Positions 6,816-56,816 of a DNA stretch of 64,000 bases are shown here, one piece after another. The DNA is taken from the IMG/VR virus record IMGVR_UViG_3300010262_000138, positions 1 to 64,000 of that record; one strand, given 5' to 3'. The notes beneath the pieces are model-generated. The model made no database searches. It worked only from the letters and a program-made list of their open reading frames with translations, and was not told where the DNA came from. Both the position numbers and the translations under genes were made by a program. Each line of letters starts with the position of its first letter. Position 1 is the stretch's first letter. This stretch comes from a virus. Taxonomy: Duplodnaviria; Caudoviricetes.

Positions 6816-6874
6816 TTTATAAAATAAAGGGCGGGTCTGAGAATAATTCTCAGACCCGCCCTTTATTTTATAAA
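6816..6874. terminator. 59-nt perfect palindrome / bidirectional terminator at the junction of left module and phage lysis cassette
   Basis: tttataaaataaagggcgggtctgagaat-a-attctcagacccgccctttattttataaa (29-bp arms). Confidence 0.8.
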
Positions 6875-7347
6875 AGAAGATTGATTTTACCAGAAACCCA
6901 CGCCATGCCAAACAGCAATAGTGCGGCAATGGCGGGCCAGTTCTTTTTAATATACTCAAGAAAATCAAATTTTGATTTATCGCTGACAATATCAACCTTT
7001 GCATCCACAGAGTTGATCTTATCATTCAATCCAGATACCTGTTTTGCCAATGCTTCAACGCTTTTATTATTCTCCGTCAGGCTATACTGCATCCCGATCA
7101 TTGTCGTTTGCATCTCGGCCAAGGTTTTTTGTGTTTCCACCAAGGTGTCAGGAAGCTTTGAAAGCATTGCAAGTGATTGCGTCATACTCTCTTTTGCAAC
7201 AGCAAAATCTTTATCGACCTCGTTCACTTTGTTCTCAAGACTGTTGATGTTATTACTAAGACCGTCAACTTTTTTCTCAAGCGTCTCGATACGATGCGAG
7301 TGGTCCATGTGTTCTCCGCAGTGAATTTCCTCTCCCACCACTACCAT
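6868..7347 (-). CDS. Coiled-coil protein with C-terminal TM helix (XhlA/holin-accessory-like)
   Basis: Heptad coiled coil, then WPAIAALLLFGMAWV; last gene of the lysis cassette. Confidence 0.6.
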   Translation of the reverse strand: MVVVGEEIHCGEHMDHSHRIETLEKKVDGLSNNINSLENKVNEVDKDFAVAKESMTQSLAMLSKLPDTLVETQKTLAEMQTTMIGMQYSLTENNKSVEALAKQVSGLNDKINSVDAKVDIVSDKSKFDFLEYIKKNWPAIAALLLFGMAWVSGKINLLL

Positions 7348-25664: not shown

Positions 25665-28600
25665 TTATATGATCCCTTTCTTCGCGTTTCCACGAATCCC
25701 TCTGTTGGATGCGGTCTTATTAAGCTGTTCAACAACCCTGTCTGCAATCTTTCTGATAGAGGGCACTACACTTTCATCGAGAGAACCCGCTACCTGAATA
25801 TTGATTAGACCGCCATCAATCGAGAGCCCAGTAGACAGAGATCCGATTCCGTTGATGCCCCTAACCGAATTGAGTTTAGGGAGCAGGGAAGACACAACGG
25901 GAAGATTTTCTACAAAATCCAGCAGCTTACGTCCTTGCATAGACGAAAGCACAACTTCCGATCTTGTAGAGCTGCCATGAAGCATCGCGGGGCCGGTAGA
26001 ACTTACAACGCCTCCCGAAGCAAACCCAGGCAAGCTTCTCGCCCCGGAAGAAAATCCCGGATATGTTCTTGGGTCTGTAATATGAACAGTACTATAATCG
26101 TAGCCGCTCCCGGATAAATCCTTATACTTTACATTGTTGTATTTGCTGTAATCATTAACGCGGTCGATAGCATCAGCCGCTTCTTCGGCCTTGCGGATAG
26201 TAGTATCAAGAGAGTCATTTACTCTGTTTACCCCATCCTCAACCCTTTGCGTCGCGCCGGCTACTGAATCCATAGCAACGGATACATTCCCGGTTTCAGC
26301 GCACATATCGCAAGTAGCCGCAATCAGGTATTGGAGGATATCATAGACTGTTTTTTCTCCAAATCCGAAGTTTTCCAATGACTTATAAGCGTCATTCCAG
26401 ACGTGGATTACTTCGTCCCTTGTCATTCCTCCATATGTCGTGCAGAATTCAATCAGGCTGTTGTAATATTCTGACGACCGTTCCTGAATCATGTCGATTG
26501 CTTCAATACGCATCGAACCTTCTTGGTCTAGAGCTTCTTCAATCAGCCTGATTTTTCTTTCGTAGTATTCTTCGTCAGCCTTGTATTCTTCTTCAAGATT
26601 GTCAAGCTTTTCTTTATGAATCAGCTCATAACGCTCATACTCATCGTCCAGAAGGTCTGTAGCCTGATCGTATGCGCGGTCTGACTGATAATCTTCCAGA
26701 TCAGAATATTTGCCTGCAAGTTGCTCCTGAAGCTCAAGACGCTTCTTCATCGCGTCGGAGGAATCGTCGTTTTGAATCTCTAAGAGTTTGCTTTCAATAT
26801 CAGCAATCTCTTTATTCTTTTCCGCAAGCTGCTTTTGATAGTCGTTTTCGTCCTTATCGCGTTCCAGCGCCTTTTTGCGAGCGTCAATTAAACGCTTATA
26901 GGCGTCGATTTGATCCTCAATCGCATCTTTTTCTTCGTCATATTGCTTTTTGATACGGTCAAGATCGTCTTGGTAAGCAGACTTTTTTGCTTCCAGACGA
27001 TGTTTGATCATCTTAACGGTAACGTCAATAAGATCTTCAATAGCACTTTGTGCGTCCTTAGCCGCTTCTTTCATCTTTTTAGCGGCTTCTTCCGCAGCCT
27101 TTGCGGCAGACTCGGCGGCTTTCCCGCCGTCCATTACTGAAAGGGAATAAGTCCCGACAGAGGCACGCGCGAGGTCAAATAACTTCCTCTGCTTCTCTAC
27201 ATGAGCATTGAGCTTTTCAACTGCGGCATCGAATTCGCTACCTTTATCTGATACAGCCGCATTAGCAATAGCCTGTTTCCATGAAGCATCCGCGTCAGCA
27301 AGACGTGCACTGGCGAGATCGTAAGTTGCATCCTTCAAGTAGCTTGCGGCTTTTTCTTGATCCTCAAACGTCTTGAGAAGATTAGTAGCCTCCTGCAGAT
27401 AAGCGGCTTCAGCATCATCAATTCTTGCATAAGCAAGATCGATCATGGCGTTTTTGTTTAGTACAAGCTGACCGTTTTCCGTCTGTAAACACGCGAGGTA
27501 TTCCGGCTCTAACTCTAAGAGAGATTGTAGTGTGTCGAGGGTTAGATAACCCTTGGTGTTATACTCTTCAACGGCTCCAGAAAGGGAGGTATAGGCAGAC
27601 TGTAGGGAGTCAATTGCGTCATTGGCGTCTTTAATAGAAAGAGCGGCAGCTTGTGCGGCGACAGAAACATCACTAAACGCCTCAGAAGAAACACTATCAC
27701 CAGAACCCACCACTTCTAAAAATCGATCAAGAGCATCGTTTGCGAAATCAACCATCTCTACGTCTGATTGCGTGACCGGTTCTATTTCTGCAAGTTGGCG
27801 ATACCAATTTGCGACTACGGGGAGGCTGGCCGCAAGATTATCATACTCTGACTTTTCAGCATTAGTAAGTTTAATGCCTTCTTCCTGTTTTTGCAGAAGT
27901 TTATCATATCTATCTACACCTAGATCAAAATATTCGACGGCCGAAACAGGCGATGAATACCCTTGCAGCTCTGCAAAGAAACCCTGTTTAAATCCCTTTG
28001 CTGTCATAACCCGATTGTTAATACCACTACGCAGATATCTGGTATTATCGAGCCCTTGAATATTGTCCTGCATTTGAGCGTAAAGATTACGCGCGGCGCC
28101 GTATTGTTCTTGTGAGGCTGTTACTTTTTCAGCCTTTAACAAGTTAATTCTACGCTCTAATGCATCGTTAGATTTCTGAAGATCAGAAAGTTCTTTTTCT
28201 TCTACAAGGGATGGCAACGTCCCAAGAGACTGAATCTCCTTAATTCTGTCCTCATTTATTTTAATCTCATCGCTAACCCGTTTAATTTCAGATGCTAAAG
28301 ATTCTACTTGTTCCTTTGACTTCGCATAAGACTCAAACGCTTCTTCTGCGCTCTGTGAAAAATAGTTAAACCCTTTAATTGCGAGGTTTAAAGCCCCAAT
28401 AACAATAGCAACCTTTGAAAGAGCCGATAAGGCAGAGAATGCCTTACCAAGAGAACCAACAGCTCCTTTCAGACCTTTAGTGGCATAACCCTCCGCAATA
28501 ATTGCTGCAGCGTTTTTCTTCGCGGCTGAAGTATTTAGAATTTTCTCAGCCGTATTGGCCCTTTCTGCATCAGATAGCCCTGTATTCGCTAATGCTTCCT

Positions 28601-28762
28601 CTATTTTTGCGCGAGTTAGAGCCTTGGAAGATAACATCTGTTGGTTGCTAGCCATTACATTGACGATTTGTTCTTTTGATAGTCCCGCTAAAGCGGTTTG
28701 CAAAAGCGCGATATCATCGCACCCGGCGCCTACAATACTAAAAAATTGTTTAATTGCCAAAT
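25665..28762 (-). CDS. Tape measure protein, exon 2 (C-terminal ~1030 aa)
   Basis: Ala/Glu/Lys-rich coiled coils and a GFASGG...AMLHG...E.VL C-terminus; no RBS and an in-frame stop 6 codons upstream of the TTG. Confidence 0.85.
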
Positions 28763-28782
28763 CTTTCTGTGTGTGTTAAAAT
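28754..28782 (+). promoter_or_regulatory. sigma-A promoter driving the antisense cargo, straddling the proposed 3' splice site
   Basis: TTGCCA(28754-59)-N17-TAAAAT(28777-82) with extended -10 TG; first cargo ATG at 28808. Confidence 0.65.
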
Positions 28783-28807
28783 AACAGTATACTAAACGAA
28801 TGGGGGA

Positions 28808-29047
28808 ATGGATTCAATGGAATGTCTGCTTGTTGCAATCACTATTGTTTTTGTTTTGATAGTTATAATGGGTCTTATTGTATCTGTGTTGTCCGAATTA
28901 GGATTTACCGACTTTCCGCCTCTGCTCATCCTTGCACTTGCCATAATAATATTTGTTGTCTGGTTTTGTAATAGTATTAAAAAAGATATAGAGAATAGAG
29001 AGAAAATAAAAAAAGAGATAGCGGAAAGAAATATGAAACGAAAATAA
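28808..29047 (+). CDS. Intron cargo: two-TM small membrane protein
   Basis: Two hydrophobic helices and a basic tail; directly after the promoter. Confidence 0.65.
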   Translation: MDSMECLLVAITIVFVLIVIMGLIVSVLSELGFTDFPPLLILALAIIIFVVWFCNSIKKDIENREKIKKEIAERNMKRK

Positions 29048-29137
29048 CTAATATCCGGATAACATAACACTCCTAATAGTGTGTAATACACTGTATAGAT
29101 TTAGTTTTTAAATAACGTATTTGAAAGGAAGGTAACG

Positions 29138-29896
29138 ATGAAGTTTTATAGAATAGTAAGTTTGGTTGCAATCTCGCTTATTATCGCATCGTGCAGTAAT
29201 GAATCTCTGAACGAATCATCTTCTACATCGTCCAGTGTAAACACAATGGTCTTACAAAATAACTCTGACTCAACAGAATTGTCCGCTGCTTCTCAGATCA
29301 ATGAAGCTTTCAGCGATAATAGTGCCGTAGAACCCGGCTTAAATAGTAATGTCGCTACTTCCTCAGAACACACCCCTGCCGAAGGTCCAACATCGTCAAA
29401 AATTGAGATTAGCGAGAGCAATATCGTAGAATCTCCCCATAAAGCGAAACCTGAAAAGACAGAAAAGATAGAAAAGCACTATTTCTGTTATTGTGACACA
29501 GAAACTATAGTTGAAATTCCGGACATCAAAAAGCCGTTCCCGGTTAATCAGGTTACAGGGTTTGAATTTGATGGATATTTCTGCGATAGTGAAAGCGTAA
29601 AGTCATCGGGGAATGAGAGAAGGTATTTCCATCATATCGAAGATGAACTCAACTTGGTTTTTGCCGCATTTGATGAATACGATAAAGTAGATCCAAGCAT
29701 TCAAGAACTGTTAGATAAACGTTGTAAATCCAATGTTCTTTATGTTGTATGGAACATATGGGATTCGAATATCGATATAATGACTCCGGCAAAAGGGGAG
29801 GGTTATACGATGAGAGATGTCCCGGTAGGCGCAAAAGGCGTCACTCTTTACGATATGGAAGGGAATATACTCGACCCACATGATGATATATTCTGA
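29138..29896 (+). CDS. Intron cargo: lipoprotein (Ser-rich linker plus C-terminal domain)
   Basis: RBS aaggaagg; lipobox LIIAS-C; Ser/Asn/Glu-rich spacer. Confidence 0.75.
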   Translation: MKFYRIVSLVAISLIIASCSNESLNESSSTSSSVNTMVLQNNSDSTELSAASQINEAFSDNSAVEPGLNSNVATSSEHTPAEGPTSSKIEISESNIVESPHKAKPEKTEKIEKHYFCYCDTETIVEIPDIKKPFPVNQVTGFEFDGYFCDSESVKSSGNERRYFHHIEDELNLVFAAFDEYDKVDPSIQELLDKRCKSNVLYVVWNIWDSNIDIMTPAKGEGYTMRDVPVGAKGVTLYDMEGNILDPHDDIF

Positions 29897-30507
29897 TGGG
29901 GAGCGAAACAAATATGATTGAATTATCCACAAATAATTCGCTAAGAGGTCATTTATCACCACATACTAAGACAAGACCTATCATGAATGGATTTTGCCAA
30001 TCAGGAAAAAGATATCTCATTTTTCACAAAATCTGCCGTTTGCGTAATCGCTTGATATCATTGGTAGTTACTAGGTTAATATACTGCGAAAATAAGCTAT
30101 GCGACGATGGGGATTTTACAATAACAGATCTCAAAAAGGATATTCAATATCTTATTTCAAAAGCGGAAAAATATGAACCATGTGTTTACCCTTGCCGGCC
30201 AATGGTGAAAGAGTTATTAGAAATACCGCAAGATCAACTTTTTAATGGTAATACCATTTCCTTTTCAACACCATATTTATTACGTGCCCAAACCTCACAA
30301 TATTACGGGTACGGAGATACTTCAAGATTTGCTATAATTGGAATAACTGTTGATAATTATGAATCAGAAGTATATTGTAACTGCGATCCAGAAAACCCTG
30401 ACATAGAAATTTTTTATGAAAAAGATGGGAATAAAACGGTTAATTTAGACTTTGTTGGCCCATGTTATATTACATATATGCTGAGAGCGCTTAATGATCC
30501 TATCTAA
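29896..30507 (+). CDS. Intron cargo: hypothetical protein (start uncertain)
   Basis: ATG overlaps the lipoprotein stop (TGATG); AT-rich. Confidence 0.5.
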   Translation: MGSETNMIELSTNNSLRGHLSPHTKTRPIMNGFCQSGKRYLIFHKICRLRNRLISLVVTRLIYCENKLCDDGDFTITDLKKDIQYLISKAEKYEPCVYPCRPMVKELLEIPQDQLFNGNTISFSTPYLLRAQTSQYYGYGDTSRFAIIGITVDNYESEVYCNCDPENPDIEIFYEKDGNKTVNLDFVGPCYITYMLRALNDPI

Positions 30508-30594
30508 TAAAAATAGGATTAGTGGGATGACTTTATGAGACAGGTTGAACTTTTGTGAACCAATATATTTATTAACCAGAACGGAGGTATTACT

Positions 30595-30801
30595 ATGGCA
30601 TTATTGGTAGCACTGGGAGTGATCGGGATCTTTGCGATGGCGCTCTACATCGGGGCGGCGGGGCTCTTTGGGCCGGTTATAGGCATTATCATCGTAATAG
30701 CGGGCGTTGTGTGGGCCTGTAAAGAAACGCCGGAGCAGAAGATGGTCCGGGAGGCAATCGAACGGAGCAACGAGAAGCTTTATGGGAGGAAGCACCCGTA
30801 A
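30595..30801 (+). CDS. Intron cargo: two-TM small membrane protein
   Basis: RBS GGAGG; two hydrophobic helices. Confidence 0.7.
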   Translation: MALLVALGVIGIFAMALYIGAAGLFGPVIGIIIVIAGVVWACKETPEQKMVREAIERSNEKLYGRKHP

Positions 30802-30854
30802 ATGATAATCGGAGGGTATATCACTCCGTAATTAACCAATATTTGATACTCACA

Positions 30855-31121
30855 TTATTCATCGGTAAGTGTAATTCCGATTGGTTTGCACCCTGTTAAA
30901 CGCAAAAAGACATACTCCATATCGTCCACATAAACTTCTGGTGTCTCATTTCCGTTTAAGTCCCATGGGAATATTGGATCTGGGATAGACAGTCCCAATT
31001 TTTTGGCAATTCTTTTAACATAAAGACGATCTAATGTAACAATTGGAATATTTGTTTTAGCAGAAAGTTTAATTAACGAATAGGTTTTTCCGTTACCACG
31101 AGGTCCATAAAACAGTTTCAT
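30855..31121 (-). CDS. Intron cargo: minimal P-loop protein
   Basis: RBS GGAGG; Walker A GPRGNGKT and Walker B-like VYVDD in 88 aa. Confidence 0.7.
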   Translation of the reverse strand: MKLFYGPRGNGKTYSLIKLSAKTNIPIVTLDRLYVKRIAKKLGLSIPDPIFPWDLNGNETPEVYVDDMEYVFLRLTGCKPIGITLTDE

Positions 31122-31163
31122 AATTTACCTCCAAAAAAAATAGGATAGAAAGGAATTTTTAAA

Positions 31164-31475
31164 ATGACTATCAATCATGTGATAGCAATTAAGTTAGAGC
31201 ATCTTGTTTGTGAGATTTGTGAGTGTGAAAGATTCGGTATTTGTGGGATTGCTAGCGCATCAAATTTTGAAGTGCGTCCAATCGAGGCGGCAATACTGTG
31301 TTTTGCTAAATTATCGCAATATCCACATAAAAGCAAAGAATGTACCGTCAAAGCAGAAAACTTTTTAGACAAATGGCACACTATATTTGAATACCCAAAA
31401 GAAAACCCAAGACATACGTGCGAAGAATACCTGTCTGAATTAGAACAAGCCGTAAAATGTTTTAACCAACATTAG
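31164..31475 (+). CDS. Intron cargo: hypothetical protein
   Basis: RBS AAGGA; stop ends 2 nt before the repeat arm at 31477. Confidence 0.65.
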   Translation: MTINHVIAIKLEHLVCEICECERFGICGIASASNFEVRPIEAAILCFAKLSQYPHKSKECTVKAENFLDKWHTIFEYPKENPRHTCEEYLSELEQAVKCFNQH

Positions 31476-31499
31476 AACTGTTTTTTTTAGCACACACAG

Positions 31500-31866
31500 C
31501 AACAAACAGGCTCCTATCAGCCTGCTAGATTTCGAGCACCTCTTTACCGTCACACCTGTATCGTCGGCGCGGCGGCGGGGGATTATGCTTCTGTGAACGT
31601 CCTTCATGACATCCGTTCCCCAACGGAGCCAGACTCGTTGCCTCGTCCGTTTTTAACGTGAAGTTTCGCTGCGGATAGACTAACACCTCAAAGTGATAGG
31701 GAAGTGCTTCATCGTCCCCGACTGTGCTCGGTTGTTGCCACCGAGCTAATTTAGTCCCTCTTTATTTATAGACCCGCATCACCATATCTTGTTCAGAGCA
31801 CGATTACGCTCCGTCCTTGATACGGCTAGGCACAATAATACAATCTGTCGCCCGTCATTTCGGGCC
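31500..31866 (-). ncRNA. Non-canonical group I-like ribozyme core
   Basis: P3 GGGACUA(31758-52)/UAAUCCC(31585-79); Q-like UAUCCGCAGCGAA; R-like ACGUUCACAGAAGCAUA; P8; S-like AAAGAGGUGCUCG; P9 hairpin 31505-31526. Confidence 0.7.
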
Positions 31867-33739
31867 AACCCAGGTCTCCAAAAATTTTAGCTGTTCCAAC
31901 GCCAAGACTTGATTTTTTAATCATGTTTATTGCGTTGGAAGCAGTATATATAGATGTACTCAACAAAGCAATTTTCGCTATAAAGCCATCGCCAATCGTT
32001 GATACCTTTAGGATGGCAGTACCAGCGTCAATTAAAAAACCAACAAAATTACTGTTTATGATAACATCAGCAAAATGTTCAAACGCGGCTGCGTTTTCTT
32101 TGAGTTTAAATTCCAAACCTTCTTGGTACGCACTAAACTTTTGCATCGCAGTACCAGCCGAATTTGCCGATACAGCGGAATACTCCATAGCCTTATCAAG
32201 ATTTTCAAACAGAACAAAGACGTTTTCGCGCTGTCTTACTCCGCCCAGTGTGGTCGCAATGGCGCTCTTCTCCGTTTCCTTAAGAGATTCCCACCTTCGA
32301 CCTGTTTCTTGAATAACTTCATTGAAATCTCTGAATTGACCCTCTTGATTTCTTAAGGATATTCCAACGGCATTCAGAGCTTTTTCAAAATCATTGAGCG
32401 GGTCTCCGTCATCATCAATCAACCTACCAAGTTTTACATTACCATATCTTGCAAATATCGTTTTAAACGCTTCACCAACGGTGCTCATATCTCGCTGAGT
32501 AACTTCGCCAACCGCTGCAAGATAGCCAAGCAGATTATCCATATCTACGCCTGCTTGACGTGCGGAGTTAGCAGTACGCGCCATTGCCTCTGCAAGACCT
32601 CCGGCGCTGACGGCGGCTTTAATGTCAATTCCGGTTAGCTTATCTACGATACCCATAGCGTTTGATGCCTCAACCTTATAGCCCTTCATGGCTGACGTAA
32701 GGTATTTTGATGCTTCTGCCGCGTCTACCATGCCAACGATGCTTAATACCATCGAGTCTTTGATTAAAGTGTTAGTATCGTCAAGATTATAGCCCTGTCG
32801 TTGCCACTCTACTGCCGATTCAGCCACAGCGGTTGTGGTGCTCCCCAGCTCGATAGCCATCCTATTGTAAACATCAATGAGCTCTTCTGCGGATTCCTTT
32901 GTGCCTCCTGTTACAATACGCAAATCGACAAGAGCTTTGTCTAACTCAAACGCTGTATCAATTGCCTTATATACCGACGTAACAAAACCAGTTGTTATCG
33001 CGCTTGAAGCTAAATAGACAGAAAATGTCTTAATCTTTTCTCCAAGGTATGTAAAAGTATTTCCGCCCTCGTACCCCGCAGACTTCATTTCTGCCTTAAA
33101 TGATTTAATCAGAACCTGAGCTTCTTTTAGATTACCTAAATCCAGTTCTGAAAAAACTTCATTGATTTTTACCGAATTTAAATCAACCGCAGACGCTTTT
33201 ATCGTTTTTAGGTATTTTTCAAAGTCTGCTTTTGTCTGCTTAATAGAAGCGGAATCGGAACTGCTCTTAAAAGCGTCACGAGCAGCCTGGGTTTCTAACG
33301 CAACTCGCTCTTTTGCAAGTTTTTGTCTTTCTTTTTCAGCAGCTATTGCTTTACTTTGCTGCTCCTGCTCAATTCTCGCATTTTCAAGCATCTGACGCTT
33401 TAATTGATCAGAAAATCTCTTCTGCGCAGCTTCTCGCTTTTGAATATCCCAATCAATTTGGTTTACAACATTTTTGGATGCATTAGTAGAAGCGCCTGAT
33501 CTGACTGATTGATTAGCCGATGATGCTGAAGATGTTAAGCTAATAGAAAGAGTTTTTGATAAATCCTTTATTTGTGCCTTAATTGAACTTGTATCAATGC
33601 TTAATTTTATTTTGGGCGGGTCTCGCCCTATCTCCTGAGCAATTTTTTCAAGTTCTTTGCGTATTAGTTGCCCAGAGGCGCCGGAAGCCGTACTGCCTCC
33701 CTCTACGCCAACTAATACTCTAATATCTGGTTCTGCCAC
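31867..33739 (-). CDS. Tape measure protein, exon 1 (TP901-family core)
   Basis: ELDKAL..LRIVTG, A.ELGSTT..VAES..EW.RQGY, VGEAFKTIFAR motifs; ORF runs on to a stop at 31826 inside the intron. Confidence 0.9.
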
Positions 33740-54918: not shown

Positions 54919-55169
54919 CCTTTATACTCCATGTCACCATAGAGAGTAGACTATCTCTTCACCCCATAGGGTGCCCGGCGCTTCCACGCAGGAATTTCAC
55001 CTGACATGTACTTCCTTTCGGAATAGTCGTTACACGTTCTCAAAAGAGCTTCGCACGGTATTGTCTCGGGAAGAGTTCTACCGTTAGCACAGCAAAGCTG
55101 CACACCCCGCAATTACGGGTTCACCGGGTTTTCACCGCGCCGTTTCCGACGCGGGGGACTGCTTTATCA
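54919..55169 (-). ncRNA. Group I self-splicing intron (251 nt, ORF-less)
   Basis: P1 GGAU|U..AGUCC with U-G wobble; P3 CCCGGUG/CGCCGGG; R GUGUAACGACUA; S GAAGAGAUAGUCU; terminal G; splicing restores NGAD-KDGD. Confidence 0.92.
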
Positions 55170-56816
55170 ATCCGCTCCATTCAATGCATGGCAGGTCATA
55201 TCATGGCAGTTTAAAAGCGTAACTGTATTCATATACCGATACCAATAGTTTGCCTCATCAGACCTGTGTATCTTCATCTTCCTGATATTATTGTGATTGC
55301 TCATTGGGGCTCGGAAACATACAACATCATCTGTCCCTTTATCGTGCCAATATCTGTTATATAGCTCCCCGGCTTTCAGCAGCCCTGTCACCGGTAATCC
55401 CCAAATGCTCTGGCACAACGCAATTGGATCGCCGCATATTACAGAGAAGTTACCCTCTACCTTAACCTTCCCGAACTTCGACTCATTTACCCTCTTCTTA
55501 ATCAGCGTCTTAATCTGATTGCGTACAAAGGGGTCTCCAAGCATCCTTCGGTCTGCCTGCAGAGCCGTAACCCAATCAAAATCTCCGCTGAATGCATTCT
55601 TCTCTGTAATACCAGTACCCCGTAAAAAGAGAAGGGTACGGTAATAATCGTCACCCATTGCATCGCTGAGTTCGTGCAGGGTAGGGGAGACCAACTCATT
55701 TATCTCATCATCGCTAAGATCATAGCTCTGAATGAACTGATAATTAAGGCGCCGCTCTTTATCAAGCTCTCTCGAAGTCACTTTTGTAGCTGAAAAGGTA
55801 TATCCATTTACACTGCAATTTTGCAGATAATCATCGATATTTGCGTAAGAATCCCATAATTTCAGCATAGAAGCAGTCAAAATCAGCTCAATTTCGTTGA
55901 TTTTGTGCTTATTTCCCCAGATGTCTACCGCCGCATCCTTTTGTGCTATTGATGACGCAAATTCATGAAAATCAAATGTAAATGCCATACCTTTACAAAA
56001 ACTATTGCGCAGACAAAGCCCAGACGGAAGATAGTCAAGCTGAAGCTCTTCCTGCCATCGCATAGCTAGGGCGGGGGACATCACTCCGTATCCATCGCTA
56101 TCAATCAACTCTACGTCTCCGTTTTTGATAACTTCCATACTTGGTTCTCCGGTAGGTGAGTCCTTCAGAAGAATGTAATCCGAGTTGAAGTGAACAACGC
56201 AGTCGTCTACGACAAGAACCCCTTTTGGTATACTGAGAGGGGTTGATGCGGAACAAATCAAGGCGCGATATGCCTCTAGCTTCGCCGGCACAAACTCTTT
56301 ATCCATGCGTCGCCCATTGTCCGCTCGTCGCCGCAGTTCTTCTAAAAGTTCCGCTCCATTCCTTGTATACTCTGAAATAAATACAACGGTTGAGTTTTTT
56401 ACGCCCCCGGTAGTCCCGACAAATCGTTGGTAGGTCATTCCATTGACCTTAAACCCTTTACACGCCCGGAGAAAATCCTTATTGGAATTACACACCAAGC
56501 AGATGTATTCCGGTACGAATTGGATCTCATTCAATGCAGAATACAGCAATTTTATGCGGTTTTCCACCTCTTTTGAACGTTTTTCTCTCCGCAATTCACG
56601 TAATTCTGTGCGAATTTTCTCGAATTTATCCAGATTTTTATGAAGATCAATACCGGCTATCTGCTCGATCATACGGATACAGGTGCTTTCCGCGAGTGAA
56701 ATCACAGCCCCGGACCTCTTGGCGTCGCGCAGCGAGATATTGTAATCCCAGTTGGACTTCCTCAATTCTTCGGTGGATAACTTCAAAACCTGCCTGAGAT
56801 AAGAATACTGCTTTAT
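55170..56816 (-). CDS. yonO: YonO-like single-subunit RNA polymerase (RdRP-related two-barrel), exon 1
   Basis: DG.G..SP, R..F.KGM, LT.SM.KLW..Y, LNYQF.Q, R.P, LNGAD; start probably ATA 56816. Confidence 0.85.

Follow-up and report, generated by a model that had tools for sequence, protein, structure and literature searches.

The tape-measure protein (TMP) gene of an SPbeta-like phage is interrupted by a group I intron. The intron is 3110 nt long and occupies positions 31867..28758 of the minus strand, beginning with U31867 and ending with G28758. It very probably splices itself out of the transcript by the standard group I mechanism; catalysis and splicing in vivo are what its sequence and those of its relatives would predict. 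An initial annotation had described the ribozyme core as non-canonical. The strings that it quoted are all present on the minus strand, but the guanosine site and the splice-site pairings prove to be ordinary. The unusual part is the periphery, which links the core to a gene-carrying loop of several kb.

The window analysed here comprises the first 64 kb of an IMG/VR virus record that is 112 kb long. Its relatives carry the YonB, YomW and YomU families, and the phage is therefore SPbeta-like. The TMP appears as two pieces on the minus strand that match one TMP family. The N part (31826-33739, 637 aa) matches PhageMin_Tail and positions 429-946 of phrog_4211, and the C part (25665-28760) matches positions 2197-2575 of phrog_4211. 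In a related phage (L002) the TMP is one unbroken protein of 1917 aa that aligns with both pieces, so about 3.1 kb intervenes in the window gene.

When the exons are joined at 31868/28757, the frame stays open for 1654 aa (...FGDLG|AIKQFF...; GAC CUG GGU|GCA AUU). Applied to six relatives, the same junction rule also leaves the frame open and gives intron lengths of 787-4795 nt. In the unbroken relative P0122, the peptide KDLFATI aligns without gaps with the junction peptide of the window, GDLGAIK. The closest uninterrupted TMPs, P0122 and P0123, were considered as guides to the junction and are too diverged to fix it. The C part lacks a conserved start codon, and no Shine-Dalgarno-like sequence precedes it. 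With the splice sites placed, the TMP of these phages can be annotated as a single gene.

Homologous introns can be found by way of the protein. A search with the TMP N part returned many N parts of similar length, and their contigs share a layout: the N part, about 400 nt of non-coding DNA, variable genes on both strands, and a long C part. With nhmmer, the window RNA is located directly after the N part in L003, L004, L006, L007, L008, L009, L011, L012, and L016. These nine homologous introns occupy the same TMP site as in the window and belong to uncultivated SPbeta-like phages. L016 is a clear member of the family (nhmmer E = 5e-43). Covariation was assessed on alignment A2, which holds nine sequences (eight relatives and the window).

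Other collections gave no further members. Megablast and blastn searches of INPHARED showed no nucleotide similarity to the window intron in any phage, and scans of IMG/VR for conserved motifs added nothing to the family. Motif scans of GTDB species genomes returned no members, only three chance matches in coding DNA. A scan for intron-less junctions, whose query was built under a wrong junction model (3' site at G28763), found nothing.

Some of the related loci have features of their own. Window positions 30859-31877, with the intron core and the first two cargo ORFs, are 99.2% identical to L004 6176-7195. Immediately upstream, identity is only ~68% over part of TMP exon 1, and beyond it, in the tail genes, identity is 95.6%. 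The two genomes thus form a mosaic with a boundary at the 5' splice site. A different intron, unrelated to the window family, is present in the TMP of another SPbeta-like phage (L017 7780-8380). It has canonical CAGAGACUA / AAGAUAUAGUCC elements, and the exon before it (...AACGUUGGU) is near-identical to that of L016 (...AACGUAGGU). A third type of TMP intron occurs at L005 9692-10051, in a large family with N parts of 563 aa. Its cargo includes an AcrVA2-like gene in precomputed Pfam annotation (L005 10051-11094), as well as a weak resemblance to a CRISPR repeat at L005 12766-12793 (RF01337, 27 bits, E = 0.9) that could be fortuitous.

The intron region is richer in G+C than its surroundings. 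Compared with shuffled sequences, its minus strand is the more stably folded (z = -2.85), which is not so for its plus strand (z = 0.06). RNAalifold predicts 89 pairs on A2, 44 of them with compensatory changes. After refinement, the model comprises 17 helices and 95 pairs, P7 being treated as a pseudoknot. In this model 96.3% of the alignment cells are paired; shifting the partners by 1-3 columns lowers the figure to 35-42%. Compensatory, that is two-sided, changes occur in 46 of the 95 pairs, and none of 500 shuffles reaches the observed values. The P3-P8 and P4-P6 helices and the P3/P7 pseudoknot are all present, which bears out the earlier claim of a ribozyme with group I topology. As judged by this covariation, the RNA in the TMP gene is a real group I intron.

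Support varies from helix to helix (all on the minus strand). The loop of P1 contains a hairpin, P1a (GCCCG...CGGGC, 31850..31865), with one compensatory pair, a change from G-C to A-U in L012. P2 and its inner hairpin P2a (31782..31825) have 5/7 and 3/6 covarying pairs, respectively. The 5' strand of P3 (GAGGGA, 31755..31760) pairs with UCCCCC at 31582-31577; P3 is 96-98% paired and lacks compensatory support because it is nearly invariant. P4 (31722-31717 with 31675-31671), P5 (31713-31711 with 31680-31678), and P5a (31707-31683) show covariation. P6 (AGCG/CGUU) is extended by P6a and three hairpins (31596..31670), and most pairs of P6a-d covary. The P8 hairpin (31546..31576) has three compensatory pairs and four with a one-sided change. 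The P9 hairpin (31505..31526) folds in every relative, though the sequences differ. The earlier assignment of P3 and P4 is supported by covariation. Another pairing scheme, with P4 as UGCGGG/UCCGCA and P5 as GACUAA/UUAGUC, was rejected: GACUAA is invariant while its supposed partner varies.

P7 was the main reason to regard the core as unusual. Its 5' strand CAGAAGCAU (31593-31585) pairs with GUGCUCG (31539-31533), both on the minus strand, and so differs from GACUA/UAGUC as had been stated. The pairing runs C31593-G31533, a bulged A31592, G31591-C31534, an extra bulge A31590, and A31589-U31535, followed by G-C, C-G, A-U, and U.G. Across ten sequences P7 is 100% paired, and two of its distal pairs covary. 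The C-G, G-C, and A-U pairs are invariant in all nine sequences that include the 3' strand, and so is the bulged A. A G-C pair beside a bulged nucleotide and a C-G pair, with A-U above, is the arrangement expected of a guanosine site. From alignment with the RF00028 consensus and textbook knowledge, the invariant pairs are presumably the guanosine pocket of canonical introns.

The additional bulged A of the earlier description is real in the window, where it may be either A31590 or A31589, and is variable in the relatives. Two members have A at this position and five have C; the other three (L007, L009, and L016) have no bulge there. The P7 of L016 is the textbook CAGACUAU/AUAGUCG. Given this and the invariant guanosine-site pairs, the window P7 is therefore a covarying variant of an ordinary P7, and its odd look is ordinary covariation with no new chemistry. 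The extra bulge is, to judge from the alignment, dispensable, and a change of cofactor is not indicated. In most members the bulge adjoins the G-C pair of the guanosine site and may have a kinetic effect.

The splice sites are fixed by the canonical pairings P1, P10, P9.0, and omega-G. Nucleotides -5..-1 of exon 1 (UGGGU, 31868..31872, minus strand) form the 5' strand of P1, which places the 5' splice site after U31868. Their partner GCCUA (31831-31827) belongs to the internal guide sequence (31827..31836, minus strand), whose other half, AUUGU (31836-31832), forms P10 with the first five nucleotides of exon 2 (GCAAU, 28753..28757, minus strand). P1 (UGGGU/GCCUA) is 100% paired, with a U.G wobble (U31868.G31831) in 10/10 sequences. 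Its compensatory change, from G-C to C-G, is found in L008 only (UGGCU/GGCUA); in L016 P1 reads UAGGU/GCCUA. For P9.0, AAAUC in J7/9 (31528..31532, minus strand) is complementary to GAUUU (28763-28759), which is invariant except for GAUUA in L008. This is followed by omega-G, the last intron nucleotide (G28758; the two together at 28758..28763, minus strand). P9.0 (AAAUC/GAUUU) and P10 (AUUGU/GCAAU) are present in all seven sequences that include the 3' end. The omega-G is invariant, so a terminal G is accompanied by both P9.0 and P10.

Several other junctions were considered. The initial annotation had noted an in-frame junction with GU...AG ends. This can indeed be read in the sequence, but the two in-frame options of that annotation have their 3' site in common, at G28763. 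The otherwise conserved GAUUUG is GAUUAG in L008, which would leave an in-frame UAG in exon 2, so that a 3' site at G28763 is excluded for both, including the option U31867|...G28763|. Placing the 5' splice site after U31872 or G31871 has no in-frame solution with a terminal G. RNAalifold proposed a long P1 between the exon AGACCUGGGUU and GAYGCGGGUCU; it was rejected because L008 and L016 favour a P1 with GCCUA, and only its AGACC/GGUCU half survives.

That half is a candidate for a second exon-binding helix. Nucleotides -10..-6 of exon 1 (AGACC, 31873..31877) can pair with GGUCU in J2/3, after P2 (31770..31774, both minus strand). The helix is 100% paired in ten sequences, and its two compensatory pairs come from L016 only (AAACG/CGUUU). 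Together with P1, all ten terminal exon nucleotides would therefore be bound, on either side of P2.

The extra hairpin reported between P3 and P4 is present as GCUCGGU-GGCAACA-ACCGAGC (31726..31746, minus strand), and 6/7 of its stem pairs covary. It is called P3.1 here, a name listed among the optional helices of group I introns (PMC3873408). Its position in the group I scheme would follow from the helix naming rule only. The P3.1 loop GCAACA (31738-31733) is complementary to UGUUGC (31504-31499, minus strand), a segment flanked by P9 on one side and the closing helix of the cargo loop on the other, and a pseudoknot of 6 bp can form. All six pairs are 100% kept, and three are compensatory, all from L009 (ACAGUA/UACUGU). 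Only 2 of 500 shuffles match the observed support. As read from these pairings, the P3.1 hairpin is a peripheral clamp, and the core is unchanged.

The closing helix has its 5' arm, the inverted repeat I2, at 31482..31498 and its 3' arm at 28784-28767, followed by a short variable linker (28764..28784 in all; minus strand). Each of the seven relatives whose sequence extends to the 3' end has a duplex here (17-21 bp, -11 to -24 kcal/mol), in L007 with compensatory changes. A promoter-like sequence, TTGCCA-17-TAAAAT with an extended -10 TG, is found on the plus strand at 28754-28782. Reading towards the cargo, antisense to the TMP, it overlaps the 3' splice site together with the first nucleotides of exon 2 on one side and the closing-helix 3' arm on the other.

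The cargo loop of the window (28785..31481, ~2.7 kb) contains six ORFs on both strands. None of them has a homing-endonuclease or transposase match in Pfam or PHROGs. Cargo content differs in every relative, and the loops measure 0.4-4.4 kb. In the cargo of L003, L006, L007, L008, L009, L011, and L016, there are faint or weak Pfam hints, among them SocA_Panacea, DUF2513, and DUF6514, and no homing endonuclease. A free-standing gene of 435 aa with a weak GIY-YIG and a faint NUMOD1 match lies between the tail-tube gene and the TMP of L009 (3506-4813).

The following course of splicing can be proposed. Exogenous guanosine would bind P7 at G31591-C31534, flanked by C31593-G31533, the bulged A31592, and A31589-U31535. 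It would attack after U31868, which is held in the U.G wobble with G31831 of P1. The omega-G G28758, placed by P9.0 and P10, would then occupy the same site in P7, and ligation of the exons at GGU|GCA would produce the TMP of 1654 aa. Pairing of the P3.1 loop would tie the 3' arm, with the closing helix and 0.4-4.4 kb of cargo, to the core, and pairing of exon nucleotides -10..-6 with GGUCU would extend exon binding to 10 bp.

Three other explanations have to be weighed. The RNA could belong to a divergent ribozyme subclass in which the altered P7 changes cofactor use or splice-site choice, as the initial annotation had suggested. This would suit a P7 unlike GACUA/UAGUC, the second bulge that most members have directly 3' of the guanosine-site G, and the result of the Rfam searches. 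No Rfam model, RF00028 included, matches the window intron region at E<=10, and RF00028 has no match at E<=1 in the L003, L005, L007, L008, L009, L016, and L017 loci; that standard covariance models may miss the intron was thus correctly foreseen. The window intron stays below the gathering score of RF00028, which is a detection criterion and not a structural definition. As evidence of novelty the miss fails: RF00028 also misses L016 and the unrelated L017 intron, which have a canonical P7 or canonical R/S elements, and the miss therefore says little about the novelty of the core. A different cofactor is further contradicted by guanosine-site pairs that do not vary, a bulge that can be A, C, or absent, covariation confined to distal P7, and the textbook P7 of L016. 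Different selection of splice sites is contradicted by the U.G wobble of P1, P10, P9.0, and omega-G, all of them canonical. Such a subclass is highly improbable.

Alternatively, the RNA may no longer splice. The TMP would then be made as two polypeptides, and the structure would be a relic or have another role, for instance in regulation of the cargo. The cargo is large and partly antisense and has no homing endonuclease, and the promoter-like site overlaps the 3' splice site, all of which could be understood in this way. It is harder to understand why substitutions throughout the core preserve the structure in phages whose TMPs are only ~36-57% identical, why all relatives retain the reading frame and the pairings at the splice sites, and why the C part is provided with neither a conserved start codon nor a ribosome-binding site. 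Loss of splicing is very unlikely. The third explanation is splicing in trans, with exon 1 and the core on one transcript, exon 2 and the 3' arm on another, and the closing helix and the L3.1 pseudoknot joining them. A helix of 17-21 bp does bridge the two halves in all relatives, across cargo of up to 4.4 kb that includes antisense genes. The cargo has no terminator-like site on the TMP strand, however, exon 2 is not preceded by a strong promoter on that strand, and the shortest member (L007, 787 nt) needs no such mechanism. There is very little to be expected of separate transcripts, and self-splicing in cis by the standard mechanism is the preferred explanation.

The periphery of this intron could, tentatively, be a specialization for cargo, consisting of the bipartite exon-binding site of 10 bp, the P3.1-loop pseudoknot, and the closing helix. 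If this is true, a canonical core can fold and select its splice sites although up to 4.4 kb of accessory genes of variable content lie in between, and an essential tail gene offers those genes a protected place. How a small ribozyme can accommodate inserts so large and so variable is suggested by the closing helix together with the two additional long-range pairings, a point of interest for accessory genes carried in phage introns and for designing group I ribozymes that are split or carry cargo. The analysis also supplies a structure backed by covariation, and defines the splice sites exactly, for a group I family that is undescribed and escapes standard models.

In its core the TMP intron resembles canonical group I introns (RF00028). 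It shares with them the P3-P8 and P4-P6 helices, the P3/P7 pseudoknot, the guanosine site, the U.G wobble of P1, P10, P9.0, omega-G, and R-like GUUCACAGA and S-like AAAGAG...UCG elements. The core can be likened, we assume, to the Tetrahymena type, and the R element presumably resembles that of IC1. It departs from canonical introns in its distal P7 (GCAU/GUGC, next to the extra bulge that varies), in the P3.1 hairpin and the pseudoknot of its loop, in the additional exon-binding helix downstream of P2, in the three hairpins borne by P6, in a cargo loop of several kb, and in the absence of an RF00028 match. Features that define two of the subgroups are lacking. Between the 5' strand of P7 and P3' there are only two nucleotides, AA, so P7.1/P7.2, expected in subgroup IA, are absent. 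P5 carries the single hairpin P5a in place of P5abc, and no P2.1 was found; both would be expected in IC1.

The same phage has another intron at 54927-55209 of the window (minus strand), where the GACUA/UAGUC P7 cited for comparison in the initial annotation is indeed present. Its RF00028 score of 37.4 bits (E = 6e-06) falls short of the gathering score, which is 50. It is likewise a group I intron in an essential gene, but it is compact (~250-280 nt) and has the GACUA/UAGUC P7, unlike the TMP intron. Elsewhere in the window, at 6817-6951 (minus strand), there is a weak L20_leader-like match (34.7 bits, E = 0.0048), also below its gathering score. Most of this match is made up of a G+C-rich hairpin with a U run behind it, resembling a terminator.

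Introns in TMP genes are also known from prophages of the Bacillus cereus group, where TMP-IVS1-3 are classed as IA1/IA2 (PMC2504315). As here, these are group I introns in phage TMP genes, most without a complete homing endonuclease, and different introns occupy one site (PMC2504315), as do those of L016 and L017. IStrons combine a group I intron with an IS element, with IA2 ribozymes and IS200/IS605 transposases (PMC4227781). Because it lacks P7.1/P7.2, the window intron is unlike both the IA1/IA2 TMP introns (PMC2504315) and the IA2 IStrons (PMC4227781). With the IStrons it shares a 5' ribozyme, cargo held in an inverted-repeat stem, and a short 3' tail with the splice site (PMC4227781). 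It differs from them, apart from P7.1/P7.2, in that its cargo ORFs match no transposase family in Pfam or PHROGs, and in carrying a different cargo in every phage.
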